Of a stretch of DNA of 64,000 nt, positions 6,598-48,378 are shown piece after piece; within the stretch, counting starts at the first letter, position 1; each line of letters opens with the position of its first letter. Where the stretch lies: assembly GCA_964555875.1 (NCBI GenBank), contig CAZKUD010000003.1:14659-78658 (forward strand), given 5' to 3'. The stretch comes from an uncultured archaeon (GTDB taxonomy: Archaea; Aenigmatarchaeota; Aenigmatarchaeia; QMZP01). Position numbers and translations under genes: made by a program. Under the pieces are notes generated by a model. The model did not search any database. It saw only the letters and a list, made by a program, of their open reading frames with translations, and was not told the origin of the DNA.

Positions 6598-7949
6598 TAC
6601 CTGTCCCTCATCAAAAGCTTTAGAGTCATTTTATCGATTTTTTCCTTTCCTTTTAAAGCAGTGTATGCTGACATGATGCCCTTCAGGGCGCCTCCCAGGA
6701 ACTTTATCCTGTTCTCCTTTATTATAGGGTTTCCTGTGTCAGAATCAACCGTATTGAACATGGTATCGCCCGTAATGAAGCCTCCCATGGCCTCCATGCC
6801 CGAGCCTATGGGATCAGTGTATTTCCTCCTATTTGTCAGCATTCTGAGCCTTGACATCACCACTATTATGTCGGCATGTGAATCGATGTCACAGTGGTTT
6901 CTTTTTCTGCCCATCCTTGGAAAGAAGCCCATCGGGGACTGTGTCCCCATCCATTTCTCTGCCCAATGCTCGGCCGCTTCCAGGAATGCCCTGTCCTTGA
7001 ATGCTTCATATGCGTCCAGCATGGCACCCGTGGCCATGTGATTCTCTATCACAGTGGATTCCCTGTCACATATTGTGCCCTTTCTGAGGTCGAACCCCCT
7101 CATGTACGTCCCGTCGTCCTTCCTATATCTGCCTATTCCCCCAAGGCTCTTGAGTGCCATCGACTTAATCTCGCTGCTCTTTGAAACTTCATACAGTCTT
7201 ATCAGGCCGTACAGCATATTCGTGTTCATCTTTGATATTGTGGCCGTGCCTCCTTCCCTGTTAAAGATGGGCAGTATCTTGTCGGGGAAGAGCGAATGTT
7301 TTCTGAAAGATTTCGTCGAACACCATCCCCTGGCAATTCTCATGGCCCCGTCCAGATGTTTCTCTTCCCTGGAGATGTCATAAAGGTTGGCAAGCTCCTC
7401 CATCAGTATGCCCGAAACCTGTGGCCTGAAGAACATGAATCCCCTCTTTGGCCAGGGAACATGCAATGCTGGAATCGCGGCGGAGTGCACAAACCCCCTG
7501 CCCGTTATGAAGCCCAGTATTCCGTCGCAAAGGCTTCCGTTCTCTTCAAGGAACCCCTTCTTCCCTGTCATCCTGTGTATCATGTTCACGCCCAGCACAG
7601 CATCCATGTGGCCTTGTGGATAAGCCGGAAAAAGGCGGCTCTGGCTGACGCGTCTGCTGCCGTCGGAAAGGGGGTAGTAGAGCCCGCACGGCTGCTTCAG
7701 CCTTTCCTTTATCAGACCCAGCTGATGGGCAGACCATTCGGTGTTTTTCCTGCCCCCTGACGCCATGTCATGCCAAACCATAAAAGGGGCAAAATCCCCG
7801 AAGTCGTCCGGCTCGCATATGTTGTCCGCCCAGACGTCCCTTACAGGGTCGTGGAAACCCGTCCTGAAAAGGCCCCATGGGTTGGGGGATTCATTCCTGA
7901 TGAACCTGCACAGCCTGTCCGCAATGTTGAGCATGTCATTGGGATTCAT
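6597..7949 (-). CDS. Hypothetical protein, about 450 aa, no recognisable family (possibly an alpha-helical toroid-type carbohydrate-active fold)
   Basis: Long ORF translationally coupled on both sides (ATGA at 7946-7949, TAATG at 6595-6599). No TM segments or catalytic motifs recognised. ATG at 7949 is preferred over 7964. Confidence 0.5.
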   Translation of the reverse strand: MNPNDMLNIADRLCRFIRNESPNPWGLFRTGFHDPVRDVWADNICEPDDFGDFAPFMVWHDMASGGRKNTEWSAHQLGLIKERLKQPCGLYYPLSDGSRRVSQSRLFPAYPQGHMDAVLGVNMIHRMTGKKGFLEENGSLCDGILGFITGRGFVHSAAIPALHVPWPKRGFMFFRPQVSGILMEELANLYDISREEKHLDGAMRIARGWCSTKSFRKHSLFPDKILPIFNREGGTATISKMNTNMLYGLIRLYEVSKSSEIKSMALKSLGGIGRYRKDDGTYMRGFDLRKGTICDRESTVIENHMATGAMLDAYEAFKDRAFLEAAEHWAEKWMGTQSPMGFFPRMGRKRNHCDIDSHADIIVVMSRLRMLTNRRKYTDPIGSGMEAMGGFITGDTMFNTVDSDTGNPIIKENRIKFLGGALKGIMSAYTALKGKEKIDKMTLKLLMRDR

Positions 7950-9238
7950 GCAAGAGCCTCCCATATCTTATGCCTTATGTACACGCTCCCAGCAAGGAAT
8001 GACGCCAAGGTAGACATTATTGCGCCATATATGCCGAACTGTGGTATCAGAATGTAGGCCATCACCATGCCCGCTGTTGCGGCTATGGCCGTGGCATAAC
8101 CTGTGTTTTTTACCCCACTGATGCCCATTGACGATGAGAACCAGGTATGTGCGAAGAAATTTATGTCCACTATGGCCACGAGGGAGAACAGGAGGATGAG
8201 AGGCAAAGATATGGCGTATTCTCTTCCGTAAAGGAACAGTATGATGAAGGCCAGCGACAGGACCGCCACAAAAACCAGAGGGTATAGCTTGAACATCCTG
8301 TTCATCTTCCTGAATATCATCTTCTTGTCCTTCTCCCTTGATGCGGCCGGGAAAAAGACTATTATGAAAGTCGTTATGAAGAAGCTTGCCACGTTAAGGG
8401 TGGAGAATGAATATGCCTGGTAAAGCCCGACTTCGCTGAAAGTGAGGAACACGTTTATGAGAATCTTGTTTATGTTGGTGTTTATGGTATAGGCCACTGT
8501 GCTGAGTATGACTATGGACCCGTACTTCAGCAGAGTCTTGCCCCATTTCCGGTCTATCTTGGGCCTGAAATACCTCCTAAGCTCGGGCAAGGCAAACGAG
8601 GATGCCAAGGCATATCCAACGGCCATTGCGGCTATGGGGACGAACGCGGTGTTGGAGAATACAAAAAGAACCAATGCGGTTCCCAAGAATAGCACGTTCA
8701 TGACTATGTTCGCCAGGCTTATCTTCTTCATCTTGTTCATGCCGCGCCATACCCTCTCGCTCATGGTCCACATGGAAAGCAGTATCGCAAGCAGGATGGC
8801 ACCGAAGACGCAGTTCTGAGTGACGTTGGAAAATGCCGCTATATGACTGGAGAACAAAGTGAGTAATAGCGTGGATGCCAGGGCCAGGAGAAGCACCATG
8901 CTGATTGAGGTCGATATTATCTTTTTCTTCTCATCATCGCTCCTGTCCTCGGCCAGGTATTTCACAAGGGCAACGGCCAGCCCCAACACCATAGGTATCC
9001 AGAAGAAGTTTGAAAGCGAAACTACCATCGTGAATTTCCCGTATTCCCCGGGACCCAGCACCCGCCCCGTATATATCTGGAAGAGCACGCTGAAGACCTT
9101 TGATATGGCTATTCCGAAGAACACGAGACTGAGGTTTCTCATGAACCCCATCGCCCCCTTTCCCGGAACCTCCCCAAAGACCTTGGGGTAAAAATACATT
9201 ATGACCTTCCTTGTGAAACTTTCTATGAACCTCTTCAT
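7946..9238 (-). CDS. Polysaccharide/oligosaccharide flippase (Wzx-like, MOP superfamily)
   Basis: 430 aa with about 12-14 TM segments and a typical N-terminal region (MRNLSLVFFGIAISKVFSVLFQIYTGRVLGPGEYG). The start at 9238 gives an ATGA overlap. The 5' extension to 9541 is low-complexity and overlaps the GT2 gene. Confidence 0.7.
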   Translation of the reverse strand: MKRFIESFTRKVIMYFYPKVFGEVPGKGAMGFMRNLSLVFFGIAISKVFSVLFQIYTGRVLGPGEYGKFTMVVSLSNFFWIPMVLGLAVALVKYLAEDRSDDEKKKIISTSISMVLLLALASTLLLTLFSSHIAAFSNVTQNCVFGAILLAILLSMWTMSERVWRGMNKMKKISLANIVMNVLFLGTALVLFVFSNTAFVPIAAMAVGYALASSFALPELRRYFRPKIDRKWGKTLLKYGSIVILSTVAYTINTNINKILINVFLTFSEVGLYQAYSFSTLNVASFFITTFIIVFFPAASREKDKKMIFRKMNRMFKLYPLVFVAVLSLAFIILFLYGREYAISLPLILLFSLVAIVDINFFAHTWFSSSMGISGVKNTGYATAIAATAGMVMAYILIPQFGIYGAIMSTLASFLAGSVYIRHKIWEALA

Positions 9239-13019: not shown

Positions 13020-13655
13020 TCAGATGAAGCCGTACTTTAGCATTAGCTCTGGATTGGCTGCGGACGCAAGCGCATCCACGTCATCCCTTATCTTCCTCAA
13101 CCTGTCCATCGCCATGTGCATGGATTCGACAAAAACCTTCTTCTCGCCGTGCCTGCTGAATATGTCCTCCATCCTCTCCTCAAAAGTCATGATTCTCTTG
13201 CCGTCCGAATGGAGGTCCCCGTATGCAACCAGTATCTCGTTCCATGTCTTGGGGAAGAATTCCTCCGGGTTAAAGTCCCTGTAAGGAGTCCCGTCCCTCC
13301 TCTCTATCTCCAGGGTTTCGCCGATTGTGAAGTGCGTCCTGACTGCCCTGGCTATCCTGGGCATACCCTCCCGCTCAAGATATTCCCCTGTCAGGATGGT
13401 TTCATGGAGGAAGTCCTCCGTGAAGCACTTGCCGAGGTCGTGTAATATGCCGGCCGCTTCGATTTCCTCGGGGCCCACATTAAATTCCGTGTTATACACC
13501 CTTATTGCAACTGCCCGGCCCCTGGCTATCTTGCCAGTGTCATAGGAGTGTTTCCGGTAGTTTGCCGGGTTCTGTATGAGCCCGCTTTCTGATATATGCC
13601 TCTCCAGGTAAGCCCCGGCATCTGCCGCTGTTTTTATCACCATATTCATCACCAA
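13020..13655 (-). CDS. HD-domain metal-dependent phosphohydrolase-family protein
   Basis: H...HD signature (RKHSYDTG ... AAGILHDLGK) with downstream His/Asp residues. It is divergent from the phosphonate operon across a 72-bp AT-rich spacer. Confidence 0.65.
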   Translation of the reverse strand: MVMNMVIKTAADAGAYLERHISESGLIQNPANYRKHSYDTGKIARGRAVAIRVYNTEFNVGPEEIEAAGILHDLGKCFTEDFLHETILTGEYLEREGMPRIARAVRTHFTIGETLEIERRDGTPYRDFNPEEFFPKTWNEILVAYGDLHSDGKRIMTFEERMEDIFSRHGEKKVFVESMHMAMDRLRKIRDDVDALASAANPELMLKYGFI

Positions 13656-13727
13656 TGGGGTATAAAATGGGAAAAAGGCTTAAATAGGCTCATTTTATAG
13701 TTAATTAAGAAACTTGAGGTAGGAACC

Positions 13728-15449
13728 ATGACGCTCAAGAACAAAATCATGCCTGATGCAAGGGTAGGGTCCCTGAAGAAGCTCCTTGACCAGGGAAGGC
13801 TCGTGAGGGTGATAGAGGCCCACAACGGGCTGAGCGCTATCATAGGCAACGATATATCAGTCGAAGACGGTGAGGGCAAGGGCAGGGGGTTTGATGCCCT
13901 GTGGGTGAGCAGCCTGACAGAGACCGCTGCAAAAGGCCACCCTGACGTCGAGATACTGGGGTTCACATCCAGGCTCAATACCATACACGAGGTGGCGGAG
14001 GTGTCCAACAAGCCTATAATAGTTGACGGCGATACAGGGATGGATTCCAACCATTTCGAATACATGGTAAAGAAGATGGAGAGGGCAGGGGTTTCCGCGG
14101 TCATAATAGAGGACAAGGTCTTCCCGAAAAGGAACAGCCTGGACGGGGAGGCAAAGCAGACACTAGAAGACCCCAAGACGTTTGCCGCAAAGATAAGGCG
14201 CGGGAGGGAGATCAGAATAAACGATTCCTTCCTGATAATAGCAAGGATAGAGAGCCTTATAGCGGGGGCAGGCCTTGAAGACGCCCTGATGAGGGCCAGG
14301 GCATATCTCGATGCCGGGGCAGATGGCATAATGATACACTCCAAGTCCAAGGACCCGGCAGAGATACTCAGGTTCGCGGAAGAATACAAGAAGATATGCC
14401 AAGAGCTCGGAGTGAAGAAGCCGCTCATTTCCGTTCCCACTGCATACAACACGATCACTGACGAGGAACTGCATAAGAGGGGCTTCAACATAGTCATTCA
14501 TGCCAATCATATGCTGAGGTCATCCTGCAAGGCGATGGAGGATGTGTGCAGGCTGATACTGGCGAGTGGGAGGTCCATGGAGACGGACCCCTTCTGTGCG
14601 CCCGTCAAGCATGTCTTCAGGCTCGTGGGTTTTGAGGACGTAAAGCAAAAGGATGCGGAGAACGAGGACATGCTAATGAACAAGATGAGGGTAATAATAC
14701 CGGCGGCCGGGGAGCACCCTGACCTTGAGGGCGTTCTGGGGGGCAGGCCGTGCTGCATGCTGGACATCAACGGCAAGACCATACTTGAGAGGCAGATAGA
14801 GGCCACCGGAAAGTTTGGGCTGAAGAATGTCGTGGTCATAAGGGGGCACCAGAAGGGACAGATAAGGGCCGAAGGCGTCAAGTTCTTTGACAACGACGAC
14901 TACGCAAATACGTCTGTCATGGCTTCCCTCATGAAGGCAAAGGAGGAGTTCGGGGAGGGATTCATATATGTGAATTCTGACATCATTTTCGAAGAGGAAA
15001 TGATTAAAGGGCTCATGGCAGAAGATTCTGATATCGTAATCATAGTTGACGGCAGCTACAGGAACCACAAACACGATGTCGACAAGAGGCTTGACCTGGT
15101 GACATTGAAGCACTCTTCTGGGGGCCACAGGAACCTCAAGAGGAAGGGGAATTTTGCGCTTAGGATAGGCAAGAACATACCCAAAGAAATGGCTGACGGC
15201 GAGTTCATAGGCATGGCCAAGTTCTCCAGGGAAGGGGCAGCTAACCTGAGGAAGGTATACGAGGACTGCATGGAAAAGCACAAGGGCAGGTTCCACGAAG
15301 CGGATTCTGTGGAAAGGTCCGGAATTACCGACATGTTGCAGGAGCTTATTGACAGGGGGTTCAAGGTTTCTGTCATCGAAGTGTACCAGGGATGGACCGA
15401 AATACACAACAAGGATGACATTGAAAGGGCAAGGGGTGAGGTTGCATGA
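13728..15449 (+). CDS. pepM: Phosphoenolpyruvate phosphomutase (PepM) fused to a C-terminal nucleotidyltransferase domain
   Basis: The N-terminal domain has EAHNGLSA, LWVSSL, IVDGDTGMD and IIEDKVFPKRNS (the EDKx5NS PepM signature). The C-terminal roughly 270 aa have an NTP-transferase fold start, VIIPAAGEHP...GGRPCCMLDINGKTILERQI. Confidence 0.85.
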   Translation: MTLKNKIMPDARVGSLKKLLDQGRLVRVIEAHNGLSAIIGNDISVEDGEGKGRGFDALWVSSLTETAAKGHPDVEILGFTSRLNTIHEVAEVSNKPIIVDGDTGMDSNHFEYMVKKMERAGVSAVIIEDKVFPKRNSLDGEAKQTLEDPKTFAAKIRRGREIRINDSFLIIARIESLIAGAGLEDALMRARAYLDAGADGIMIHSKSKDPAEILRFAEEYKKICQELGVKKPLISVPTAYNTITDEELHKRGFNIVIHANHMLRSSCKAMEDVCRLILASGRSMETDPFCAPVKHVFRLVGFEDVKQKDAENEDMLMNKMRVIIPAAGEHPDLEGVLGGRPCCMLDINGKTILERQIEATGKFGLKNVVVIRGHQKGQIRAEGVKFFDNDDYANTSVMASLMKAKEEFGEGFIYVNSDIIFEEEMIKGLMAEDSDIVIIVDGSYRNHKHDVDKRLDLVTLKHSSGGHRNLKRKGNFALRIGKNIPKEMADGEFIGMAKFSREGAANLRKVYEDCMEKHKGRFHEADSVERSGITDMLQELIDRGFKVSVIEVYQGWTEIHNKDDIERARGEVA

Positions 15450-16582
15450 ACTCCGGTGAATTCTGCTCAAGGCTGAAGGGCCTTGGATACAGCTTCTTTG
15501 CTGGCGTTCCCTGCTCCTTCTTCAAGGACACGATAAACTACGTGATAAGCGACAAGGACACGTTCTATGTTTCGGCTGTGAATGAGGGTGCAGCAGTAGG
15601 GATAGCGTCCGGCGCCCAGCTTGCCGGCAAGAAGGCCGCCGTGGTAATGCAGAACGCTGGCGTCGGCAACACCATAAACCCGCTGACATCTCTCAACATG
15701 ATATACAACATCCCAATCCTTATCTTCATAAGCGGAAGGGGTTATGGCGTGAAGGACGAGCCCCAGCACGCAATAATGGGCAGGGCCACACATAAGCTCA
15801 TGGAAGAGATAGGCGTTGAGGTGAAGGACCTGCCTGAAGATGATGATGAGGCCTTCAGGGAGATGGAGAGCTTTGATAAGAAGATGTCGGACGGAAAGCC
15901 CAGGGCTTTTGTCATCAGGAAGGGCACGATAGGGGCATGCGAGACTGAAAGGGGGGACATGAAGGAGAGGGTAATAGAGCCCCATTATTCCTCTGAAGAG
16001 AGGCCAAAGGGACTCATCAGCAGGTATGACGCCATAGAAACCGTAAGCAGGCTGATGGATGACAGAACCGCTGTTGTGGCCACCACAGGAAAGATATCAA
16101 GGGAGCTTTTCACCATAAATGACCGGCCGCTCAACTTCTACATGCAGGGATCCATGGGCCATGCCGCCGCGATAGGCCTGGGTGTAGCCATATGCAAGCC
16201 GGACAGGAAGGTCGTGGTGATGGACGGGGACGGGGCGGCCCTCATGCACATGGGCACGCTTTCGACCATAGGCCATTATGCTCCCGAGAACCTCACGCAT
16301 ATAGTGTTCGACAACGAGTGCCATGAAACAACCGGGGGGCAGGGCACCACATCAGTGACGGCCAGGCTTGACGATGTCGCCAGGTCATGCAGGTACAGCA
16401 GGGTGTACAGGGTGTACACGATAGAGGGCTTGGAGAATGCGGTCAGGGAGTCCTTGGAGGGGGATGGACCAGGGTTTATACTGGTGAAGGTCAGCAGGGA
16501 GAAGAAGGAAGGCATACCAAGGATAACCACTAAATACACAACGGAGGAAACCGCAAGGATATTCAGGGAGGCGCTTTCGTAA
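15446..16582 (+). CDS. ppd: Phosphonopyruvate decarboxylase (ThDP-dependent)
   Basis: The N-terminus GYSFFAGVPCSFFKD is typical of Ppd/AepY. ThDP motif: MDGDGAALMHMGTLSTIG...FDNECHETTGGQ. ATGA overlap with pepM. Confidence 0.8.
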   Translation: MNSGEFCSRLKGLGYSFFAGVPCSFFKDTINYVISDKDTFYVSAVNEGAAVGIASGAQLAGKKAAVVMQNAGVGNTINPLTSLNMIYNIPILIFISGRGYGVKDEPQHAIMGRATHKLMEEIGVEVKDLPEDDDEAFREMESFDKKMSDGKPRAFVIRKGTIGACETERGDMKERVIEPHYSSEERPKGLISRYDAIETVSRLMDDRTAVVATTGKISRELFTINDRPLNFYMQGSMGHAAAIGLGVAICKPDRKVVVMDGDGAALMHMGTLSTIGHYAPENLTHIVFDNECHETTGGQGTTSVTARLDDVARSCRYSRVYRVYTIEGLENAVRESLEGDGPGFILVKVSREKKEGIPRITTKYTTEETARIFREALS

Positions 16583-17721
16583 TGAGCCAGGAGATTGTTT
16601 TTGGGCCAGGCAAACTCCGTGAGCTTGGCAGCATAATAGAAAGGCTGGGGCCCAAATCCATCTTTCTCGTTACAGGCAAAAGGTCTTATGATTCCTGCGG
16701 AGCCAGGGAGATCGTAGAAGAGGCATGCAAAGGTAGGGAAGTCCACAGGTTCAGCGATTTCGAGGTCAACCCAAAGATTGAGGACGTCAAGAGGGGCATA
16801 AAGATTTGCCTGGAGAATGGCTGTGACCTTGTTGTGGCCGTCGGTGGGGGAAGCGTGATGGATGTCGGGAAGTCAGTTGCCATACTGTCCCGGCAAGAAG
16901 ACAAGGAACATCCGGAGAGATACATAACCAAGGAAGAGGCCCCTTTGCCTAAGACCCTCCCCATGGTTGCGGCTCCGACCACGTTCGGGACAGGGAGCGA
17001 ATCCACGCATTTTGCGGTGGTATACATAGGCAAGGACAAGTACTCACTTGCCGATGGGATGATGGTCCCCAAGGTCGCCATAATAGACCCCAGGATGTCT
17101 AAAACCCTGACAAGGAAGATAAAGGGAAGCACCGCATTCGATGCCATATGCCAGGCCCTGGAGGCCTACTGGTCAAACAGGTCCACGGAAGAGTCAAAAG
17201 AATACAGCACCAAGGCGCTGAAGCTCATGGTCCCATCAATTGAAAGGTTTGTCAATGAAGGGTATGACGAGAGGGCAGCATCTGACATGGCGCTTGGAAG
17301 CAACCTGGCGGGAAGGGCCATAAACATAGCCAAAACAACCGCTGTGCATTCGACTTCATATCCCATGACATCATATTTCGGTGTCCCCCATGGCCAGGCA
17401 TGCGCCATAACCCTGCCCGAATTTTTCAGGTTCAACTGCGGAGTGGGTGAGGGCAACATACAAGACAGCAGAGGCATTGGTTATGTCAAGGACATTATGA
17501 AGAGCATACCTGGACTGTTTGGGATGGAAAGCGAGGAGGAATGCTACAACAAGATTAAGACCCTTATGGTCAATTGCGGGCTTGCAACCAGATTGGGGGA
17601 CCTGAACATAAATGACATAAAGCTCATACTGGACAACGGCTTCAATCCGGAGAGGGTCAAGAACAACCCCGTGAAGGTCACAAGGTCTGATTTGAGGAGG
17701 CTGCTGGAGGGGATAGGATGA
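16582..17721 (+). CDS. Group III iron-containing alcohol dehydrogenase; candidate phosphonoacetaldehyde reductase (PhpC/FomC/Pdh-like)
   Basis: GGGSVMDVGK motif and His-rich metal site region (AVHSTSYPM...PHGQAC). TAATG overlap with ppd; the substrate assignment comes from operon context. Confidence 0.7.
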   Translation: MSQEIVFGPGKLRELGSIIERLGPKSIFLVTGKRSYDSCGAREIVEEACKGREVHRFSDFEVNPKIEDVKRGIKICLENGCDLVVAVGGGSVMDVGKSVAILSRQEDKEHPERYITKEEAPLPKTLPMVAAPTTFGTGSESTHFAVVYIGKDKYSLADGMMVPKVAIIDPRMSKTLTRKIKGSTAFDAICQALEAYWSNRSTEESKEYSTKALKLMVPSIERFVNEGYDERAASDMALGSNLAGRAINIAKTTAVHSTSYPMTSYFGVPHGQACAITLPEFFRFNCGVGEGNIQDSRGIGYVKDIMKSIPGLFGMESEEECYNKIKTLMVNCGLATRLGDLNINDIKLILDNGFNPERVKNNPVKVTRSDLRRLLEGIG

Positions 17722-18428
17722 AGGCTGTCATACTGGCCTCCGGCGCGGCCACCAGGCTCAGGCCGCTTACGGACAATGTGCCCAAGTGCCTCATAGAAGT
17801 CAATGGGGACACAATACTGGGAAGAATGCTGAGGGGGCTGGAAAGGAACGGGGTAAAGGATATCCTGATAACCACCGGCCACATGGGAGATGCTGTCAGA
17901 GAGTACGTGAAAAGCAATTTTCCGGGCCTTAACGTAGAGTATGTTCATAATCCCATGTTTGGGGACACAAATTACATATATTCCATGTGGCTTGCCAAAG
18001 ACAAGGTGACCGATGATGACATCCTGCTCCTTCACGGGGACCTGGTTTTTGACGAGACGCTCCTCGAAAGGGCGGTGAATGTAACCGGCAGCATGGTACT
18101 GGTCAACAAAAGCGTGCCTCCACCAGAGAAGGACTTCAAGGGCCTTGTTGTGGATGGGCACGTGAAGAACGTGGGAGTGAACGTGTTTGGGGATGGGGCA
18201 TTCTTCCTGGCCCCGATGTACAGGCTTTCCAAGGAAGCTTTCAAGGTATGGATGTCTGAGATAAACCGCTTTGTGGGCAATGGGAAGGTCAAATGCTATG
18301 CAGAGGATGCTTTCAACAACGTATCACATATAATAAAGGTTGCCCCCCTGTACTACACAGAATTCTGTATGGAAATAGATACCCCGGAAGACCTGGAAAA
18401 GGCAAAAAAGGCGCCCGAGATGGCCTGA
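17718..18428 (+). CDS. Nucleotidyltransferase (LicC/sugar-phosphate NTP-transferase fold); candidate phosphonate cytidylyltransferase
   Basis: AVILASGAATRLRPLTDNVPKCLIEVNG is the G-x-G-x-R-L signature. ATGA overlap with the upstream ADH gene. Confidence 0.7.
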   Translation: MKAVILASGAATRLRPLTDNVPKCLIEVNGDTILGRMLRGLERNGVKDILITTGHMGDAVREYVKSNFPGLNVEYVHNPMFGDTNYIYSMWLAKDKVTDDDILLLHGDLVFDETLLERAVNVTGSMVLVNKSVPPPEKDFKGLVVDGHVKNVGVNVFGDGAFFLAPMYRLSKEAFKVWMSEINRFVGNGKVKCYAEDAFNNVSHIIKVAPLYYTEFCMEIDTPEDLEKAKKAPEMA

Positions 18429-18489
18429 CAATTAATAGGCTAAGGTGGCACAATAAGCTTGGTAAAGGCATGCTTGGGGTGAGATGTCA

Positions 18490-18903
18490 TTATTTCAGTA
18501 TCCCGAACGTCAGCCTCTTGTGGCCGTTGAAGTTCCAGAAGACCACTATCAATATGGACAGCATCTTGGCCAGCATGTACCAGAGCCCGAAGAACTCGAC
18601 GAACACAAAGAGGAACATTTGGTTTAGGGCAAGCCCAACCATGGCAACGGCCACAAAAAGGCCGAACTGCTTTGCTATTTTTTTGCTCTTGTTCTTGAAA
18701 TTGAGGTACTTGTTAAGGGAGTAATCTGTCGCCATGCCCGCTATATAGGACAGTCCCGCAGAGAACAAGTACCATATGCCTAGGAATTCTGTCAGGGAGA
18801 ATAGCAGCCCCAAGTCAACAAGCGCAGCTATGCCACCGAAGAACATGTAGTTTATGAAGAGCCTCATGTCCTGCTTCCCGAATATCGGTTTTATCACATC
18901 CAT
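18490..18903 (-). CDS. GtrA-family membrane protein
   Basis: 137 aa with 4 TM segments and the GtrA-like motif FINYMFFGGIAALVDLGLLF. Confidence 0.7.
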   Translation of the reverse strand: MDVIKPIFGKQDMRLFINYMFFGGIAALVDLGLLFSLTEFLGIWYLFSAGLSYIAGMATDYSLNKYLNFKNKSKKIAKQFGLFVAVAMVGLALNQMFLFVFVEFFGLWYMLAKMLSILIVVFWNFNGHKRLTFGILK

Positions 18904-18906
18904 GTT

Positions 18907-19677
18907 TCAACTGACCCTGAATTTCTCGACTTCCCTTATTCCCCTGACGTGTAGCATGTAGACCATCAGCGCCTTGAGTATATTGGCGCTGTAGCCCACG
19001 AGTTCGGAGAATGACGGGTGCCGGGATTCCTTCCCGTAATGGGTAGGTATGGGCCTTTCCGTTATTTTCAGGCCCTTTATCTTGAACTGTATGAGGATGT
19101 CTGTATCGAACTCGTATGCGTCAGAACATTTCTTGAAAGGGACCTGATTCAGGGCGGCGCACCTGTAGACCCTGAACCCGGAGTGGTACTCCGAGAGCTT
19201 CAGCTTCAGCACGAAGTTTTCGATTCCGGTGAGGAACTTGTTGCCAATCAGCTTGAAGACTGGCATGCCCCCCCTCCTTGGGTTGCCCTCCATCCTTGAA
19301 CCGAAGACCATATCTGATTTGTCGCTCTTTATGGCGTCCAGAAGTGTGGGTATCTTCTCTGGAGCGTACTGGGCATCGCCGTGGAGCATCACAACGTAAT
19401 CATATCCCCTGTCTATGGCATACTGGTAGGCCACCTTCTGCGTGCCGCCGTATCCCAGGTTTCTCTTGTTCTTCAGGACGGTCAGGTTTGACATCCCCTT
19501 CCTTTTCTTGTACTGTACCCCAACGAGGTATGTGCTGTCCTGGCTGTCGTTGTCTATTATGAATATTTCCTTCACGACGTCCTTTATCTCCTTGGGTATC
19601 CTGTCTATGACCAGCGGGAGGGTATGGGCCACGTTATAGGCAGGTATGAATATGGCCACCTTCTCCTTCCTTTTCAT
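18907..19677 (-). CDS. Glycosyltransferase family 2 (polyprenyl-phosphate glycosyltransferase type, pairs with GtrA)
   Basis: VAIFIPAYNVAHTL, IFIIDNDSQDST and MLHGDAQY. The start at 19677 gives an ATGA overlap with rfbH; the 5' extension to 19842 overlaps rfbH and is low-complexity. Confidence 0.75.
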   Translation of the reverse strand: MKRKEKVAIFIPAYNVAHTLPLVIDRIPKEIKDVVKEIFIIDNDSQDSTYLVGVQYKKRKGMSNLTVLKNKRNLGYGGTQKVAYQYAIDRGYDYVVMLHGDAQYAPEKIPTLLDAIKSDKSDMVFGSRMEGNPRRGGMPVFKLIGNKFLTGIENFVLKLKLSEYHSGFRVYRCAALNQVPFKKCSDAYEFDTDILIQFKIKGLKITERPIPTHYGKESRHPSFSELVGYSANILKALMVYMLHVRGIREVEKFRVS

Positions 19678-21014
19678 CGTCCTCCCCTCCTCGATTTCAG
19701 GAAGCTGCCTATTCTTTCTGCCATGTAATCCAGCATCTCTTCTGTGATGCCCGGGTATACCCCGACCCAGAAGGTATTGTTCATTATTTTGTCCGTTTTC
19801 TCCAGGCCGCCGACTGTCCTGTGCTCCACTCCATTGAAACATGGCTGCCTGGTTATATTGCCTGAGAAGAGCAGCCTTGTGGCAATCTTGTTATCCTCGA
19901 GGTAGCTGACGATATCGGTCCTTGAGAACGGCGCCCCATCCTTCACGGTTATTGGGAATCCGAACCAGCTGGGGTCCGAGTTCTCAGTTGGCTTTGCGAA
20001 GGACAGGAGATTTTCGTGCTCATTGAGCCTTGCGTGAAGGCCCTTCCAGTTCCTTTTTCTGGCATCCACGAACCCCGGGAGCTTCCGGAGCTGCTCGACC
20101 CCTATGGCAGCCTGCATGTCTGTCAGCTTTAGGTTGTATCCCCTGTGGGAGTATATGTATTTATGGTCATAACCGTATGGCAGGGTGCCGAGCTTCCATT
20201 TGAACCTCTTCTTGCAGGTATCGTCGTGGCCCGGCTCGCACCAGCAATCCCTGCCCCAGTCTCTGAAGGACTCTATCAGCCTCTTCAACTGTGTGTCGTT
20301 GGTCACCAGTGCGCCCCCCTCTCCCATGGTCATGTGGTGCGGGGGATAGAAGCTGCACGTGGATATGTGCCCGAAGGTGCCTGTGTGTTTTCCCTTGTAT
20401 TTGGAACCCAGGGCATCGCAGTTGTCCTCTATCAGCCACAGGCCGTGCTTCTTGCATACCCTGCCTACTGTATCAAGGTCGAAGGGGTTGCCAAGGGTGT
20501 GGGCCAGGAATATGGCCTTTGTCTTGTCAGTCACTGCCTCTTCAATCCTGCTGCAGTCGATGTTAAGTGTGTCCTGGTTCACATCAAGGAATACCGGCAC
20601 CAGGCCGTTCTGGATGATGGGATTAACGGTTGTGGGGAAAGCGCATGCCACTGTTATGACCTCATCTCCCGGCTTGAGATGCCTCTCCCCCAGCTTGGGG
20701 GACGTGAGGGCAGACACCGCAAGCAGGTTGGCGGATGAGCCTGAGTTGGTAAGGGAGCAGTACTTGGCTCCCAGGAATTCTGAGAACTCTTTCTCGAATC
20801 GCCTGGCGAATCTTCCGGATGTCAGCCAGAAATCGAGGGACGCCTCCATGAGCGATTTTATCTCCTCGGCATCATACACCCTACCAGAGTACTTTATGTA
20901 TGTCTTCCCTGGCTTGAAGCTTTCCCTTCTCTTGTGGACTGCCTCAAAGTGCCTTTCAGCTATCTTACGTGCCTCCTTTCTCAGGGACTCGTCTTCTGCT
21001 TTATTTTCCATCAT
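19674..21014 (-). CDS. rfbH: CDP-4-keto-6-deoxy-D-glucose 3-dehydrase (E1; RfbH/DdhC/AscC type, PMP- and Fe-S-dependent)
   Basis: DegT-fold protein in which SFYPPHHMTMGEGG carries His where aminotransferases have the PLP-Lys. The Cys pattern C-x57-C-x1-C-x7-C was counted directly (DNC...RDCWCEPGHDDTC). Confidence 0.8.
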   Translation of the reverse strand: MMENKAEDESLRKEARKIAERHFEAVHKRRESFKPGKTYIKYSGRVYDAEEIKSLMEASLDFWLTSGRFARRFEKEFSEFLGAKYCSLTNSGSSANLLAVSALTSPKLGERHLKPGDEVITVACAFPTTVNPIIQNGLVPVFLDVNQDTLNIDCSRIEEAVTDKTKAIFLAHTLGNPFDLDTVGRVCKKHGLWLIEDNCDALGSKYKGKHTGTFGHISTCSFYPPHHMTMGEGGALVTNDTQLKRLIESFRDWGRDCWCEPGHDDTCKKRFKWKLGTLPYGYDHKYIYSHRGYNLKLTDMQAAIGVEQLRKLPGFVDARKRNWKGLHARLNEHENLLSFAKPTENSDPSWFGFPITVKDGAPFSRTDIVSYLEDNKIATRLLFSGNITRQPCFNGVEHRTVGGLEKTDKIMNNTFWVGVYPGITEEMLDYMAERIGSFLKSRRGGR

Positions 21015-22122
21015 TATCTAAAGTCTCCATGTAATTATCTATCTCCTTCTCCGTGGCCTCCCTCAGGCCGTCTCCCTTCTGGCTCCCATAATACCTCTTG
21101 TACCAGTCCACCGTTCTCTTAACAGTGTCATTTATACCGTACACTGGCTTCCAGCCAAGGGCGGAACACGCCTTCTCTATGTTGAGTTTGAGCAGTTTGG
21201 CCTCATGGGGCTTTCTGGAACCATCTACCGTATATTCCCCCCTGCCCCAATGCTTTATCAAGAGCTTGACCAGTTCCTCCACTGGTATTATGTTGCTGTC
21301 GTTTGGCCCGAAATTCCATGCCCCGCAGTATTTCGCCCCCCCTTTTCTCATCAGGGCGCCAAGCAGGAGGTAACCACAGAGCGGGTCAAGGATATATTGC
21401 CATGGCCTCACTGCACCAGGGGACCGGATGCTTATGGGCTCGCCCTTTGATATGGCCCTTATGCAGTCAGGAACTATTCTGTCAATTCCCCAGTCGCCCC
21501 CTCCTATGACATTGCCGGCCCTGACAGAAGAAAGGGCGACCTTGTTGGAGCTGTCCCCGTCACGCTGGCTGAAAAAGGACCTCCTGTATGCGCTTGTAAC
21601 CAGCTCTGCACAGCCCTTGCTGCAGCTGTACGGGTCGTATCCGCCCATAGGGTCGGTCTCCCTGTAGCCTCTGTCACATTCCATGTTCTCGTAGCACTTG
21701 TCGCTGGTAACATTCACACAAACCTTGGTGCTGCCAGACTTTCTGACACATTCCAGCACATTGATGGTTCCCATCACGTTCGTCTCGAATGTTAGCTTGG
21801 GCTCCTGGTAGGACGGCCTCACGAGTGATTGGGCAGCCATGTGGAAGACGAATTCAGGACAGTGTTCACTGAAAACGGACGCTAGCCTGCCCTCGTCCCT
21901 CACATCCCCCTTTATGTGGGTGACCAGATCATCAAGCCCTATGGAATCGAAGAGGTTGGGGATGCTAGGCGGCTCTAGGGAATATCCTATTACCTCAGCT
22001 CCCATGCGGTTGAGCCAGAGGGAGAGCCAGCTGCCCTTGAACCCCGTATGCCCAGTAACGAGCACCTTCTTTCCGCCGTAAGCTTCCCGCAGGGCTTCAG
22101 CCGTGCTTGATCTTCCAGTCAT
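21001..22122 (-). CDS. rfbG: CDP-glucose 4,6-dehydratase
   Basis: KKVLVTGHTGFKGSWLSLWL, a YSCSKGCAE (YxxxK) motif and about 370 aa, all typical of RfbG/DdhB. Confidence 0.85.
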   Translation of the reverse strand: MTGRSSTAEALREAYGGKKVLVTGHTGFKGSWLSLWLNRMGAEVIGYSLEPPSIPNLFDSIGLDDLVTHIKGDVRDEGRLASVFSEHCPEFVFHMAAQSLVRPSYQEPKLTFETNVMGTINVLECVRKSGSTKVCVNVTSDKCYENMECDRGYRETDPMGGYDPYSCSKGCAELVTSAYRRSFFSQRDGDSSNKVALSSVRAGNVIGGGDWGIDRIVPDCIRAISKGEPISIRSPGAVRPWQYILDPLCGYLLLGALMRKGGAKYCGAWNFGPNDSNIIPVEELVKLLIKHWGRGEYTVDGSRKPHEAKLLKLNIEKACSALGWKPVYGINDTVKRTVDWYKRYYGSQKGDGLREATEKEIDNYMETLDNDGK

Positions 22123-22555
22123 ATGGTATCTTATCCGTGTTCGGATCCATCCTCTTTATTTCATCAGGGTCGTGTGGTATGGTGGCGCAGTTGGCCACTA
22201 TCGAGGTTTCGTCGCCGACTCCCCTGAAGCCGTTCCAGACCATCGGGGGCACCTTCACCAGGCAATAGTTGTCCTGGCCCATGACAATCTCCATTATGTT
22301 TCCCTTGGTAGGCGAACCTTCCCTGGCATCATACAACACGAGTTTTATGTTGCCCTTGATTACCGCATAGTTGAGGGTCATCTTCTCATGTATGTGCCAT
22401 CCCTTCACGACGCCGGGATGGACAGAAGAGAAGTATATCTCCCCGAATTTCTCAAAGATGGGGTCATCGCTCCTGAGCATATGGTATATGCATCCCCGCT
22501 CGTCCTGTATCTTCTTCAGGGGCTTCACGACCACTCCTTCTATTGTGCTTTTCAT
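22097..22555 (-). CDS. RmlC-like cupin, NDP-4-keto-6-deoxyhexose 3,5- or 5-epimerase family
   Basis: 152 aa with DERGCIYHM and GWHIHEKMTLNYAVIKG (cupin His). The start at 22555 gives an ATGA overlap. The ORF-track extension to 22708 is rejected. Confidence 0.65.
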   Translation of the reverse strand: MKSTIEGVVVKPLKKIQDERGCIYHMLRSDDPIFEKFGEIYFSSVHPGVVKGWHIHEKMTLNYAVIKGNIKLVLYDAREGSPTKGNIMEIVMGQDNYCLVKVPPMVWNGFRGVGDETSIVANCATIPHDPDEIKRMDPNTDKIPYDWKIKHG

Positions 22556-23499
22556 TTCCCTCCCCCTTTCTTGTACCAGTCTATGGTCAGCTTCAGGCCT
22601 GTTTCCAGGACCATGTTCTTGGGATGCCACCCCAGCATCCTCTCCGCCTTGCTTATGTCGGCGCAGCAGAGCCATACCTCGTTGCTCCTGTGCTCCAGAG
22701 CATCCCACTGGGGATTGCCAGAACCCACTATCTCCCTTATCTTGTTGACCACGTCCTTCACGCTCACGGCCTTTCCTGTTCCTATGTTGAAAACCTCATG
22801 CCTGCTTGGGAATTTCCGGGACGATAGCAGCTTCATGTAAGCATCAACTATGTCCTCCACGTACACGAAATCCCATTTTTGCTTTCCTGTTGTCATTTTT
22901 TGGGTTTCCCCATCCATCATGCTCCTTATGGAGTGGGGTATTAGCTTCCTTTTGTGGTCGGCTGGCCCGTAAGGGGGGAACAGCCTGAGGGTGACAGCAC
23001 GCAGGCTTCCGTTCTTGGTATAGAAGTCACAGGCCTGCTCAGCGTATATCTTTGTGAGCGCATAAAGGTTCACCGGTTCCAGCTCTGATTCCTCTGTGAG
23101 CTTCCCGTCGCTTGCCTTGTATACGAAAGCCGTGCTGGTGTTGACAAAGAGCCTGGTTCCATGCTCCCTGGATGCTTCCAGGAGGTTTATGGCGCCTGTT
23201 GTGTTGGCGCCCATCATGGACTTTATTTCATCTGACCTATGATTGACAGCATAGTAGGTTGCAAGATGGAAGACTGCGTCCGGCCTGAAATCAGAGAATG
23301 CGGAAGAAACGCCGCCAGTGTCGCTCAGGTTTGCGTCATATGCCTTTATCTTGCTGATGCTGTCCTCTATGCGCCAGGTATCTGATTCAGTCCTCTTTAT
23401 TATGCCAACCTCAAAACCGTCTTTCAGCAACCTCTTCACCAGATGGGAGCCTATGAAGCCGGTGGCTCCCGTTATCATCACTCTTTTCATCTCAGTCAT
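22552..23499 (-). CDS. NAD(P)-dependent nucleotide-sugar reductase/epimerase (extended SDR); candidate CDP-4-keto-3,6-dideoxyhexose 4-reductase
   Basis: VMITGATGFIGSHL and YALTKIYAE (YxxxK). It sits between rfbF and the cupin epimerase. ATGA overlap at 23496-23499. Confidence 0.7.
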   Translation of the reverse strand: MTEMKRVMITGATGFIGSHLVKRLLKDGFEVGIIKRTESDTWRIEDSISKIKAYDANLSDTGGVSSAFSDFRPDAVFHLATYYAVNHRSDEIKSMMGANTTGAINLLEASREHGTRLFVNTSTAFVYKASDGKLTEESELEPVNLYALTKIYAEQACDFYTKNGSLRAVTLRLFPPYGPADHKRKLIPHSIRSMMDGETQKMTTGKQKWDFVYVEDIVDAYMKLLSSRKFPSRHEVFNIGTGKAVSVKDVVNKIREIVGSGNPQWDALEHRSNEVWLCCADISKAERMLGWHPKNMVLETGLKLTIDWYKKGGGK

Positions 23500-24275
23500 C
23501 CCCATGTCTTCCAGAAAGCCTTTTTATTGTTCCATAGGGTGTTGAGGAAAACCATGTCCCTATAGGTATCCATGCAGCCCCACTGCCCCCTGTGGACATG
23601 CACCATGAGCTGGCCCTCTTTTGCTAGCTTTTCAAGGGGGCCCATCTCGAAATCACAGTTCTTTTCCAGGGACAGATAATCGAATATCTTCCTGTTGAAC
23701 ACGAAGAACCCACCGTTTATCAGGCCCTCCGAAAGCTGGGGTTTTTCTGTGAAGGACACCACCTTGTCCCCGCTTATCACCATCTCTCCGAACCTGGAGG
23801 GCGGCCTGACACCCGTGACTGTCCCTATCTTGCCGTGCTTTTTGTGGAATTCTAGAAGCTCCTTTATGTTTACGTTGGCCACCCCGTCCCCGTATGTCAG
23901 CATGAACGTGTCCCCGTCTATGTATTTTTCTATCTGCTTTATCCTGGAGCCCTTCAGGTTGGCTTCTCCAGTGTCGGCAAGCGTGACTTTCCAGTCCCCC
24001 TCGCCATGGTTCCTGTGTATTTCTATCTTGTTGTGGTCTCCCAGCTCTATTGTGAAGTCGTTCTTCAGGACGCCGTAATTGTAGAAATATTCCTTTATCT
24101 TCTCGCCCTTGAATCCCAGGCAGAGGACGAAATCTTTGAATCCGTAGTTGGAATACGTCTTCATTATGTGCCAGAGCATGGGCTTTCCCCCTATCTCTAC
24201 CATGGGTTTTGGCTTGGATTCTGTCTCTTCCTTTAGCCTGGTGCCTGTTCCGCCGCATAGGATAACGACTTTCAT
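23496..24275 (-). CDS. rfbF: Glucose-1-phosphate cytidylyltransferase
   Basis: MKVVILCGGTGTRLKEETESKPKPMVEIGGKPMLWHIMK matches the RfbF/DdhA N-terminus nearly canonically; 259 aa. Confidence 0.85.
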   Translation of the reverse strand: MKVVILCGGTGTRLKEETESKPKPMVEIGGKPMLWHIMKTYSNYGFKDFVLCLGFKGEKIKEYFYNYGVLKNDFTIELGDHNKIEIHRNHGEGDWKVTLADTGEANLKGSRIKQIEKYIDGDTFMLTYGDGVANVNIKELLEFHKKHGKIGTVTGVRPPSRFGEMVISGDKVVSFTEKPQLSEGLINGGFFVFNRKIFDYLSLEKNCDFEMGPLEKLAKEGQLMVHVHRGQWGCMDTYRDMVFLNTLWNNKKAFWKTWG

Positions 24276-25091: not shown

Positions 25092-25808
25092 TTAAATGTT
25101 ATTCCGTATGTTTTTCCAGGTGCTGGTTTCTTCCTTTACTTTTCTGTCTTTCTTGCCCTGGCGTTTCCTTATCATCCAGAAGATCCAGAAGAGAGGTATG
25201 TATACGCCGTAAAAATACATGAAGTATTGAAGAAGGTCCAGAACGCCGAGCACATAAAGCACAGGGAGAAACATGTTCGCAAGGGTTATGTCATAGGCAA
25301 ATTTGGCCACACGCCCCGATTTCTTTTCCCTTCTAAGGGCCATGTGCTCTGCCCTGAGCTCGTGGAGCCTTAGCATCATCATGAATACCGAGGCAGATAT
25401 GCCCAGGAGCAGAAGTATCAAGCTGCCGCCCCTGAGGAACAGGCCAAGGCCTATGAAGATGTGGACGAAGTAGTACATGTCGTGACCCGCTATGTCAAGC
25501 AGCCTGCCATAGTAGGTTGGTCCGTGGTACCTGGCCAGCTCTCCGTCAACATGGTCGAAGACGTAGGCCACATTGAGCAGGATGGCACTCACGACTATGT
25601 TCCACCAACTGCCGCTCACAAGGAACGGGAAGAAGGAAGAGGCCATGAATATCAGCTGTATCACTGTGGCGGTGTTCGGGGCTATCCCCATAATGAGGAA
25701 GAGCTTTGTAACGTATATGGACACTTTCCTCATTACCCGCGTGTACAGGAATTCCTTCCCCAGTTCAGGGGGCTGGCATATTTTTCTGAGTTCCTTTATA
25801 GACTCCAT
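25092..25808 (-). CDS. CDP-alcohol phosphatidyltransferase-family membrane protein
   Basis: The signature D-x2-D-G-x2-A-R-x8-G-x3-D-x3-D is present as DHVDGELARYHGPTYYGRLLDIAGHD. Multi-TM, 238 aa. Confidence 0.75.
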   Translation of the reverse strand: MESIKELRKICQPPELGKEFLYTRVMRKVSIYVTKLFLIMGIAPNTATVIQLIFMASSFFPFLVSGSWWNIVVSAILLNVAYVFDHVDGELARYHGPTYYGRLLDIAGHDMYYFVHIFIGLGLFLRGGSLILLLLGISASVFMMMLRLHELRAEHMALRREKKSGRVAKFAYDITLANMFLPVLYVLGVLDLLQYFMYFYGVYIPLFWIFWMIRKRQGKKDRKVKEETSTWKNIRNNI

Positions 25809-38667: not shown

Positions 38668-38717
38668 AAGTATGTTGAATATATTGTCAAGGTTTTTAAA
38701 TATTCGTCTGAGGCCAT

Positions 38718-40072: not shown

Positions 40073-40088
40073 TGTAATCTACCATTTC

Positions 40089-44080: not shown

Positions 44081-44112
44081 ACTTGTTAAAGCTGGGGTTC
44101 CATTATTTCTCT

Positions 44113-46274: not shown

Positions 46275-46325
46275 GTATATAGATTGTGCAGGCAAACTTA
46301 AATAAATAAAAAATAGCGAAGTTTC

Positions 46326-47291: not shown

Positions 47292-47325
47292 GCTTTATAT
47301 TAAGGTCGGCATTAATTTATAAAAC

Positions 47326-48342: not shown

Positions 48343-48378
48343 GATAATAATTAATCCCGGAAGATATATATTAATTGG

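Follow-up and report, generated by a model that had tools for sequence, protein, structure and literature searches.

Nucleotidyl activation is predominant in phosphonate gene clusters: PntC enzymes cytidylylate 2-aminoethylphosphonate (AEP), and the PF01467 cytidylyltransferase (CyTase) domain of Fom1 makes the cytidine monophosphate (CMP) derivative of 2-hydroxyethylphosphonate (2-HEP, HEP) (PMC6697681). A PF12804 domain is fused to about 33% of bacterial phosphoenolpyruvate (PEP) mutases (Ppm, PepM), and some clusters have a stand-alone nucleotidyltransferase in addition to the fused one (Rice et al. 2019, PMC6697681). HEP-type clusters make up 8.5% of the ppm neighbourhoods in a survey that included 12 archaeal neighbourhoods from RefSeq, and isolated products are given there only for N. 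maritimus methylphosphonate and for the HEP-exopolysaccharide of Stackebrandtia (Li & Horsman 2022, PMC8942020). Here we describe a four-gene cassette on the forward strand (13728-18428) of a 64,000-nucleotide stretch of contig CAZKUD010000003.1; this whole stretch is called the window. The cassette encodes a PEP mutase fused to a nucleotidyltransferase domain (PepM-NT), a phosphonopyruvate decarboxylase (Ppd), a group III iron-containing alcohol dehydrogenase (Fe-ADH) and a stand-alone nucleotidyltransferase (NT2). We consider it likely that the cassette as a whole serves phosphonyl tailoring of the HEP type in a probable DPANN archaeon.

The bacterial Pnt clusters (PMC6697681, PMC8942020) resemble the cassette in having a PepM with a C-terminal PF12804 domain, a further LicC-like nucleotidyltransferase within a few genes of it, Ppd, a setting of cell-surface glycan genes, and CMP activation followed by transfer. 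They differ in the branch enzyme, which is an AEP transaminase (AEPT), leading to AEP, in place of the Fe-ADH, leading to HEP; in the host, which for the window is archaeal with AglB-type glycosylation; and in the fused domain, which in the clade of the window has Cys for the signature Lys. Phosphocholine decoration by LicC and LicD is also comparable. LicC is the nearest solved structure to both NT2 and the fused domain, and in both systems a small phospho- or phosphonoalcohol is cytidylylated, or predicted to be, and then transferred to a glycan. The predicted substrate in the window is, however, a phosphonate. We scanned all non-nested open reading frames (ORFs) of at least 150 aa in the window with Pfam, NCBIfam or both, and found neither the LicD-like transferase of these two systems nor the LicA kinase and the LicB transporter.

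The fosfomycin pathway of Streptomyces, with Fom1 (CyTase-PepM), Fom2 (Ppd) and FomC (Fe-ADH), runs from PEP through phosphonopyruvate, phosphonoacetaldehyde and HEP to CMP-HEP, and it too has a nucleotidyltransferase fused to PepM. In Fom1, however, the CyTase is at the N-terminus and is of the unrelated fold family PF01467, whereas the domain in the window is C-terminal and belongs to PF12804. The window lacks Fom3, Fom4 and FomD, its B12-dependent radical S-adenosylmethionine (SAM) protein (B12-rSAM) being HpnJ/AprD4-like by family models, among which there was no Fom3 model; and the fosfomycin genes form an antibiotic cluster, while the cassette lies in a glycan island. The Nitrosopumilus maritimus cluster (pepM, ppd, pdh, mpnS and transferases) is archaeal and shares PepM, Ppd and an Fe-ADH leading to HEP. 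Its neighbourhood suggests esterification of methylphosphonate to a surface exopolysaccharide (as summarised in PMC9381506). It differs from the window, where no MpnS was detectable and HEP is the predicted product, where the lineage is DPANN-like and where the island contains AglB. Stackebrandtia nassauensis and Glycomyces make HEP-phosphonoglycans from a pepM-ppd-phpC type of cluster, with 2-HEP on an exopolysaccharide (cited in PMC8942020); these are actinobacteria with a chemically shown product, while the window is known from sequence alone. The "Cobalt" region of the Borg elements of Methanoperedens is archaeal and has a PepM-cytidylyltransferase fusion, N-glycan genes (DPMS) and a CDP-alcohol phosphotransferase, but it is of the AEP type (PntC-AEPT fusion), it is extrachromosomal and no Fe-ADH was reported there (10.1101/2024.11.05.622173).

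The sequence-only reading of this DNA had suggested that a phosphonylated cell-surface glycoconjugate would be new for archaea. This claim to novelty was overstated. Archaeal pepM-ppd-ADH clusters or PepM-nucleotidyltransferase fusions have been described in Methanocorpusculum (PMC10035134), in Borg N-glycan regions (10.1101/2024.11.05.622173), in six archaeal phyla of cold seeps (PMC11051675) and in marine surveys (PMC9381506), and phosphonylated surface glycoproteins were proposed for Prochlorococcus (PMC8931226). Fusions are as frequent in bacterial Ppm as stated above, and of the 80 related loci compared, 26 (11 of these archaeal) contain the full cassette. It is thus an ordinary case of a known, widespread pathway in a little-studied host, and no new kind of system. 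In the literature, as far as we searched it, there was no chemical evidence for archaeal HEP conjugates, no DPANN example treated in detail and no function for a fused domain lacking the catalytic signature. To our knowledge, no archaeal phosphonate has been chemically characterised outside Nitrosopumilus, and genome surveys place the genes in many archaeal phyla.

We examined the structure of the cassette. The pepM-NT fusion gene (13728-15449, 573 aa) consists of the PEP mutase domain (13728-14657, residues 1 to ~310) and a C-terminal LicC-like nucleotidyltransferase domain with a non-canonical signature (14679-15449, residues ~318-573). It is followed on the same strand by ppd (15446-16582, 378 aa), the Fe-ADH gene (16582-17721, 379 aa) and NT2 (17718-18428, 236 aa). 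The three junctions are GCATGAAC, TCGTAATGAGC and GGATGAAG, which correspond to ATGA, TAATG and ATGA overlaps of 4, 1 and 4 nt; judged by these overlaps, the four genes are translationally coupled. The ORFs and junctions agreed with the co-directional, overlapping genes described before, and all the motifs named then (IVDGDTGMD, IIEDKVFPKRNS, MDGDGA...FDN, GGGSVMDVGK and GAATRLRPLT) were present in the translations. Upstream of pepM there is a divergent, A/T-rich intergenic region of 72 bp (13656-13727), shared with a gene for an HD-domain protein. It contains the TATA-like elements CTTAAATA and TTTTATAG and, 7-11 nt upstream of the pepM ATG, a GAGGT Shine-Dalgarno-like site, and we regard it as a putative promoter region.

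The same gene calls, lengths and arrangement were found in four independent public assemblies (JGI, two from ENA, and Logan). Nucleotide identity over 15446-18428 was 100% in the four assemblies, of which three span all of it and the fourth has a contig that stops after 778 bases; the flanks of the cassette (11-21 kb) were 99.9-100% identical among them. Therefore the arrangement is neither due to chance nor a chimeric assembly artefact. We had suspected a strain-variable cassette, since the exact PepM cluster comprised only a 1.9-kb contig, and this was ruled out by the four contigs with an identical cassette. There was no compositional sign of a recent transfer of the cassette, its GC content being 0.52 versus 0.49-0.54 in the flanks.

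The first two enzymes were assigned at the level of equivalogs. The PepM domain reached 343.7 bits with NCBIfam model TIGR02320 (cut-off 319.55), while the rival models remained below their cut-offs: 164 bits for phosphonopyruvate hydrolase (374), 121 for methylisocitrate lyase (354) and 51 for CPEP mutase (420). Its best matches in the PDB were the PEP mutases 5unc and 1m1b (E = 1e-48 to 1e-45). Both the catalytic EDKx5NS signature (EDKVFPKRNS, within IIEDKVFPKRNS) and the Mg-binding DxDxG motif (IVDGDTG) are present, and residues D100, D102, E128, D129, K130, N136 and S137 were invariant in an alignment of 25 relatives. The earlier assignment as a true PepM had named clustering with methylisocitrate lyase or CPEP mutase as the result that would speak against it, and the NCBIfam scores came out on the side of PepM. 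Ppd scored 386.7 bits with equivalog TIGR03297 (cut-off 312.5), covering positions 2-358 of the 360 in the model, and the sulfopyruvate decarboxylase models scored below their own cut-offs. It has both domains of thiamine diphosphate (ThDP)-dependent enzymes (PF02776, PF02775) and the MDGDGA...FDN motif, and its start codon overlaps the pepM stop; the Ppd-type decarboxylase proposed before was thus borne out. We predict with very high confidence that the cassette forms a carbon-phosphorus (C-P) bond by PepM and decarboxylates the product by Ppd.

The view that there is no phosphonate pathway at all, the isocitrate-lyase-superfamily and ThDP enzymes being misassigned, or that the operon is a catabolic one for the use of HEP or AEP, has some grounds. 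The PF13714 superfamily is made up mainly of non-PepM enzymes (PMC6697681), and HEP catabolism also employs Fe-ADHs (PMC13576164). Given the scores and the EDKx5NS signature above, and scans that found no phosphonatase, PhnW, PhnY/Z, C-P lyase or phosphonate transporter in the window, we consider this view so improbable as to be almost negligible.

The Fe-ADH matched PF00465 (E = 4e-45) and PF25137 (E = 4e-32) and contains GGGSVMD, the GGGSxxD dinucleotide motif (GGGSVMDVGK), as expected for the group III enzyme named in the sequence-only reading. Its best solved relative was a methanol dehydrogenase, and in the PDB there was no characterised reference for PhpC, FomC, DhpG or Pdh. Of the 80 related pepM loci, 47 have a homologue. 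Full-length homologues number 40 (27-47% identity); nearly all of them lie within ~3 kb of pepM or ppd in other loci, and they share the signatures DAxxQxxE(S/A)xW, TTAxHxxSYP and PHG with the enzyme of the window. This synteny in many genomes agrees with the role in the phosphonate pathway that had been given to it. In 35 of the 41 cassette-linked enzymes a Gln (DAxxQ; residues ~187-191 in the window) stands at the position of the second canonical metal-ligand His, which is a possible marker of a phosphonoacetaldehyde-reductase clade or of altered metal binding.

We searched the window for enzymes that would lead to another product. No class-V aminotransferase (PF00266, AEPT) was found in the 64 kb. 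The DegT-type enzyme at 19674-21014 is RfbH (736 bits, cut-off 423) and not AEPT, and a class I/II aminotransferase (54100-55287) is 36 kb distant, surrounded by housekeeping genes. Orphan ORFs about as long as MpnS or HEPD (~430-455 aa) were also sent to a PDB sequence search, and none of the scanned ORFs of the window matched MpnS or HEPD by Pfam, NCBIfam or PDB. A hidden MpnS/HEPD found no support in 6597-7964, which had no PDB match at E <= 10, in 44083-45387, which is EndoQ, or in 48894-50237, which is weakly similar to cyclic 2,3-diphosphoglycerate (cDPG) synthetase. The reported lack of AEP transaminase, HEPD, MpnS and C-P lyase was therefore reproduced, and 2-HEP is the best-supported product, probably in its CMP-activated form by analogy with characterised systems. 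We find it quite likely that HEP is the small-molecule product of the cassette.

HEP could instead be an intermediate that enzymes outside the window, or enzymes unrecognised inside it, convert to methylphosphonate (MpnS), hydroxymethylphosphonate (HEPD) or 2-hydroxypropylphosphonate (a Fom3-like B12-rSAM acting on CMP-HEP). The visible 64 kb of genome leave room for this, the island contains several SAM methyltransferases, B12-rSAM homologues occur within 10 kb of pepM in six loci (L015, L031, L041, L071, L077 and L085), and in L081 a radical SAM gene stands two genes downstream of pepM. The B12-rSAM protein of the window (31974-33395), however, has its nearest relatives in HpnJ (323.6 bits), which acts on sugars, and in AprD4. 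A role as a Fom3/PhpK-type methyltransferase of CMP-HEP was not supported, as it scored 147 bits for the PhpK family (cut-off 600), and its orthologues travel with the module of CDP-alcohol phosphotransferase (CDP-OH) and methyltransferase genes in pepM-less islands. With no orphan ORF matching MpnS or HEPD, and with a supply of the O2 that both need seeming unlikely for such an organism, further conversion of HEP appears improbable to us.

NT2 is the predicted cytidine triphosphate (CTP):2-HEP cytidylyltransferase. It matched PF00483 (E = 1.8e-12) and PF12804 (E = 1.1e-11), and its Pfam scores of 47.8 and 45.6 bits are above the gathering scores. Its best PDB match was LicC (1jyk, E = 2e-15), followed by PntC (6pd1, 1.4e-8), in alignments that span only the N-terminal 100-120 residues; this bears out the LicC/PntC-like stand-alone enzyme that had been noted. 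The signature GxGTRLxPLT...PK is canonical (GAATRLRPLT...PK, GAATRLRPLTDNVPK), the gene is the third after pepM, and homologues were found inside the cassettes of 44 of the 80 loci, with 35-51% identity in dozens of pepM loci. The fused domain scored 34 bits with PF12804 (gathering score 27) and had no match to PF01467. A profile of its family matched LicC 1jyk at 4.7e-19 over nearly the whole of LicC, and PntC 6pd1 at 8.9e-10; therefore the fold assignment is sound. The fused domain and NT2 are 23% identical over 117 residues. By analogy with the enzymes known, nucleotide activation of HEP is likely.

The nucleotidyltransferases might also not act on HEP, in which case NT2 would activate another phospho-alcohol or a sugar phosphate, and HEP would stay free or be attached in another way. 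NT2 scores on models of sugar-1-phosphate and inositol-phosphate nucleotidyltransferases too, the pepM-less islands L089 and L090 contain distant NT2-like genes (25-29% identity), and use of HEP is not on record for any PF12804 enzyme (PMC6697681). On the other side, the NT2 start overlaps the stop of the ADH gene (ATGA), its homologues stand within pepM cassettes in dozens of loci and next to the branch enzyme in close relatives, and about two-thirds of phosphonate clusters have such nucleotidyltransferases (PMC6697681). We therefore regard an unrelated substrate of NT2 as quite improbable.

Further, we compared the cassette with related loci. A single-sequence PepM search of genome contigs gave no close relatives; these were found by an alignment-based scan, from which the 80 best GTDB-species loci (L001-L080) were taken. 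The PepM-nucleotidyltransferase fusion family has more than 8000 matches, the best at 50-63% identity. The archaeal loci among those with the full set of PepM, Ppd, Fe-ADH and NT2 belong to Methanosarcinales, Thermoplasmata, Promethearchaeota, Nanoarchaeota, Methanosphaera and Methanomethylophilaceae, and the remaining ones mostly to gut Firmicutes, plus one bacterium of the candidate phyla radiation (CPR). The exact architecture and gene order of the window recur in metagenome-assembled genomes (MAGs) of Thermoplasmata (L018) and Falkowbacteria (L015). The loci of the closest relatives of the fusion protein are modular: PepM-NT and an NT2-like nucleotidyltransferase are kept, while the branch enzyme changes. 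In L082/83 (63% identity) this enzyme is Fe-ADH, in L084 AEPT, in L085 an aldehyde dehydrogenase, and in L081 and the P0008 contig a 2-hydroxyacid dehydrogenase. The NT2 homologue comes immediately after the branch enzyme in L082/83, L084 and L085; in L081 and the P0008 contig it is found within 6 kb. The stand-alone nucleotidyltransferase thus stays near the branch enzyme whichever that is, which supports action of NT2 on the final small phosphonate.

The archaeal L081 locus and P0008 contig (54-58% PepM identity) deserve a separate remark. In both, PepM-NT is followed by the 2-hydroxyacid dehydrogenase, with no Ppd; a B12-radical SAM gene and an alpha/beta hydrolase gene are found further downstream, and two CDP-OH transferases flank the cluster. 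The gene content suggests a phosphonolactate-type branch in archaea, beside AsnB-GT4-STT3.

The window encodes Cdc6/Orc1, a family-B DNA polymerase (PolB), EndoQ, AglB/STT3 and an AglH-like enzyme of glycosyltransferase (GT) family 4, which makes the host an archaeon. Nearly all relatives of PolB that carry a name (54-58% identity) are MAGs of Candidatus Aenigmatarchaeota, and one is from Nanoarchaeota, so that by this one marker the host is probably a DPANN archaeon. The cassette lies in a glycosylation island of ~40 kb (700-39700) with GT2, GT4 and GT-C (PMT_2) enzymes, Polysacc_synt, LPG_synthase_TM and GtrA flippase-like proteins, and sugar-nucleotide enzymes. The family scans found these enzymes in agreement with the archaeal glycosylation island with AglB that had been described. 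Outside the cassette, the AglB/STT3 oligosaccharyltransferase (36370-38730, reverse strand; PF02516, E = 3e-21) and the GT4-family polyprenyl-phosphate HexNAc-1-P transferase (AglH-like; 38718-39743, forward strand; PF00953, E = 4e-33) mark the island, on the strength of these family matches, as an archaeal N-glycosylation locus.

The pathway that we propose has five steps. The PepM domain would isomerise PEP to phosphonopyruvate, and Ppd would decarboxylate this irreversibly to phosphonoacetaldehyde and CO2, pulling the unfavourable PepM equilibrium; both steps are based on the equivalog-level matches. The Fe-ADH would then reduce phosphonoacetaldehyde to 2-HEP with NAD(P)H, as suggested by family membership and strongly conserved synteny. 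NT2 would convert CTP and 2-HEP to CMP-2-HEP by analogy with LicC, PntC and Fom1, with the PepM-fused domain possibly helping or replacing it. Finally, the genomic context suggests transfer on the cytoplasmic face to a hydroxyl of a lipid-linked glycan or of a lipid made by the island, followed by export and a phosphatase-resistant display on the surface.

Several observations weigh against this pathway or its parts. The Fe-ADH fell below all NCBIfam cut-offs, with 185 bits for ErcA, its best model (cut-off 550), and 175.9 bits for Phn_Fe-ADH TIGR03405 (cut-off 423.7). It passes no curated subfamily model, and therefore its assignment as a phosphonoacetaldehyde reductase rests on context, which is strong. 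In an ungapped alignment of the fused domain with LicC, GTR is replaced by HPD and PK by PC, and with them the canonical Arg and Lys are lost; the GTR motif was absent in all 25 aligned relatives of the fused domain, and the Lys is lost, mostly to Cys (PCC), in the closest relatives of the window. NT2 is therefore the better candidate for the activating enzyme. Of the further nucleotidyltransferase domain that had been read in the fusion, the LicC-like fold stood, but a second active enzyme is unproven, its catalytic signature being missing. The characterised PF12804 PntCs were assayed on AEP and phosphocholine and preferred AEP, and HEP cytidylylation was demonstrated solely for the unrelated PF01467 domain of Fom1 (PMC6697681). 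The precedent quoted before, that cytidylylation of HEP or AEP is known from Fom1 and PntC, thus applies to AEP by PntC and to HEP by Fom1, but not to HEP by a PF12804 enzyme (PMC6697681). As 64 kb of the genome is what can be seen, tailoring enzymes could be encoded elsewhere.

We also observed that the PepM-fused PF12804 domain is conserved across thousands of fusions despite the missing GxGTR loop, and this pattern suggests a non-canonical or non-catalytic role.

The transfer step is weakened by scans of the window that found no LicD, sulfatase/EptA or TagF-type transferase. The only recognisable enzyme of the window able to use a CMP-activated donor is an atypical CDP-OH protein (25092-25808, reverse strand), 6.7 kb from the cassette, with at least four transmembrane (TM) segments and 38 bits for PF01066 (gathering score 22). 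It has DGELARYHGPTYYGRLLD for the DGx2ARx7-8Gx3Dx3D motif, where the fourth, final Asp is His, as in most of its subfamily, and the subfamily has a nearly invariant N-terminal MESIKELRKICQ motif. Its members, found in L084, L089-L091, L096 and L097, accompany SAM methyltransferases, B12-radical SAM proteins, PMT_2 GT-C proteins and flippases in glycan clusters of archaea and Patescibacteria. In L084 a homologue (32% identity) lies 4 kb from PepM-NT, AEPT and NT2, while the orthologues in L089-L091, L096 and L097 belong to glycan clusters that are pepM-less within the up to 10 kb fetched on each side. A dedicated HEP transferase is thus weakened as an assignment, with five of the six other subfamily contexts lacking pepM and L084 alone in support. 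By its motifs and context the protein is a candidate for the phosphonyl transferase rather than an assignment, and a doubtful one, and for no specific transferase would we claim more. The sequence-only reading had a nucleotide-activated 2-HEP as the end product; of this, 2-HEP is best supported and its activation probable, but no enzyme could be pinned to the transfer.

If the product went to a lipid, CMP-HEP would serve as an analogue of a CDP-alcohol for this CDP-OH protein and give a phosphonolipid head group. Such a route would parallel CMP-AEP-dependent phosphonolipid synthesis and the "Burkholderiales_CDP-OH" clusters, a large cluster family in which CDP-OH occurs with two PntCs, one of them Ppm-fused (PMC8942020), and CDP-OH_P_transf is also found with PepM-NT in the Borg glycan region (10.1101/2024.11.05.622173). 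Apart from the short distance to the cassette in the window, CDP-OH_P_transf genes adjoin PepM-NT in L081, the P0008 contig and L084, and NT2, by its best NCBIfam match, and the CDP-OH protein, by one of its matches, each correspond to one half of the bifunctional IPCT/DIPPS enzyme. However, both the closest CDP-OH orthologues (45-59% identity) and the distant members stand in glycan clusters with no pepM within the fetched stretch, the gene itself lies among glycan genes (PMT_2, methyltransferases and the CDP-hexose pathway), and the catalytic motif of the subfamily is missing its fourth Asp. Lipid synthesis is usually absent from DPANN archaea, which also counts against it. We hold a phosphonolipid head group to be unlikely.

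Returning to surface decoration in general, it had been proposed that the phosphonate decorates a glycan, a glycoprotein or a lipid. The island setting favours this, but AglB lies 18 kb from the cassette, the link to AglB and the N-glycan is one of position alone, and no phosphonyl transferase was pinned. We lean slightly towards a cell-surface glycoconjugate or lipid as the destination. A fuller version, which we offer tentatively, would have a DPANN-type archaeon decorate its N-glycan or S-layer glycoprotein, or a surface lipid, with HEP from CMP-HEP. This would be the first archaeal HEP glycoconjugate, made by a transferase of a new type, for example a CDP-OH protein of the MESIKELRKICQ type, with the fused domain possibly non-canonical.

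A further point that weighs against the pathway is that L090 and L091 have a syntenic island (about a dozen genes, 33-54% protein identity) in which the cassette is missing at the matching position. In the window an 11-kb block (13020-24275: HD gene, cassette, GtrA, GT2 and Rfb genes) stands between LPG_synthase_TM and the methyltransferase/CDP-OH module, and these two are contiguous in L091. The block has no compositional anomaly. The cassette thus looks like an accessory element inserted into an otherwise conserved island.

A cell surface decorated with phosphonates resists phosphatases, and such decorations add to the C-P pool of the environment, to which the HEP and methylphosphonate esters of dissolved organic matter belong. 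The cassette is a compact, intact unit of four genes that bears on the use of HEP by PF12804 enzymes, on the role of the fused domain and on phosphonate transfer without LicD. Its place in the glycosylation island of a probable DPANN archaeon offers a concrete hypothesis on the surface chemistry of organisms that live by cell-cell contact. If HEP is indeed displayed on the surface, the occurrence of the cassette in Nanoarchaeota and in a CPR bacterium would suggest that phosphonate surfaces recur in ultrasmall episymbionts.

Other genes of the window were also analyzed. Directly downstream of the cassette, on the reverse strand, lies a CDP-3,6-dideoxyhexose pathway (19674-24275). RfbF (338 bits, NCBIfam cut-off 300) and RfbG (467, cut-off 278) passed, as did RfbH with the score given above, and together with an RmlC/FdtA-like isomerase of 152 aa and a short-chain dehydrogenase/reductase (SDR) acting as reductase/epimerase the set looks complete; no E3 reductase (RfbI/AscD) was recognised beside it in the window. 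For a probable DPANN archaeon such sugar chemistry is unusual. The HD-domain protein (13020-13655, reverse strand; PF01966, E = 1.2e-6) is divergent from pepM and reached 54 bits with TIGR00295, below the cut-off of 172. It had no match in the PDB, and none to PhnZ, for which a structure has been solved. There was no homologue in L001-L080, and a 27%-identical one stands beside a nucleotidyltransferase in the pepM-less locus L090. We rejected a PhnZ-like C-P oxygenase, given the weak TIGR00295 score, the lack of a PDB match and the lack of a homologue in the 80 pepM loci.

The regions 18490-19842 (reverse), 2715-4295 (forward) and 25809-27557 (reverse) encode a GtrA-like flippase, a GtrB-like GT2 and two PMT_2 GT-C proteins, a set similar to the three-component system by which glycans receive sugars at the outward-facing side of the membrane. 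In the flippase and glycosyltransferase operon, a soluble protein of 455 aa (6597-7964, reverse) had no Pfam, NCBIfam or PDB match; its homologue (34% identity) occupies the syntenic position in L091, where a faint C-terminal match to a C5-epimerase is on record. The glycan operon also contains a nitroreductase-SAM methyltransferase fusion (5356-6597, reverse), 48% identical in L091. The ORFs of 290-450 aa at 45384-50237 (reverse) and 39978-40856 (forward) fall outside the families of Pfam and NCBIfam; one or two N-terminal TM segments are predicted in several of them, and one is weakly similar to cyclic 2,3-diphosphoglycerate synthetase (3e-5). Finally, Cdc6/Orc1, with non-coding stretches nearby, was found in the region of 55287-57455 and 57455-58654 (forward), with PolB and PolD-small-subunit-like genes close to it, and from this arrangement a replication origin may lie near Cdc6/Orc1.

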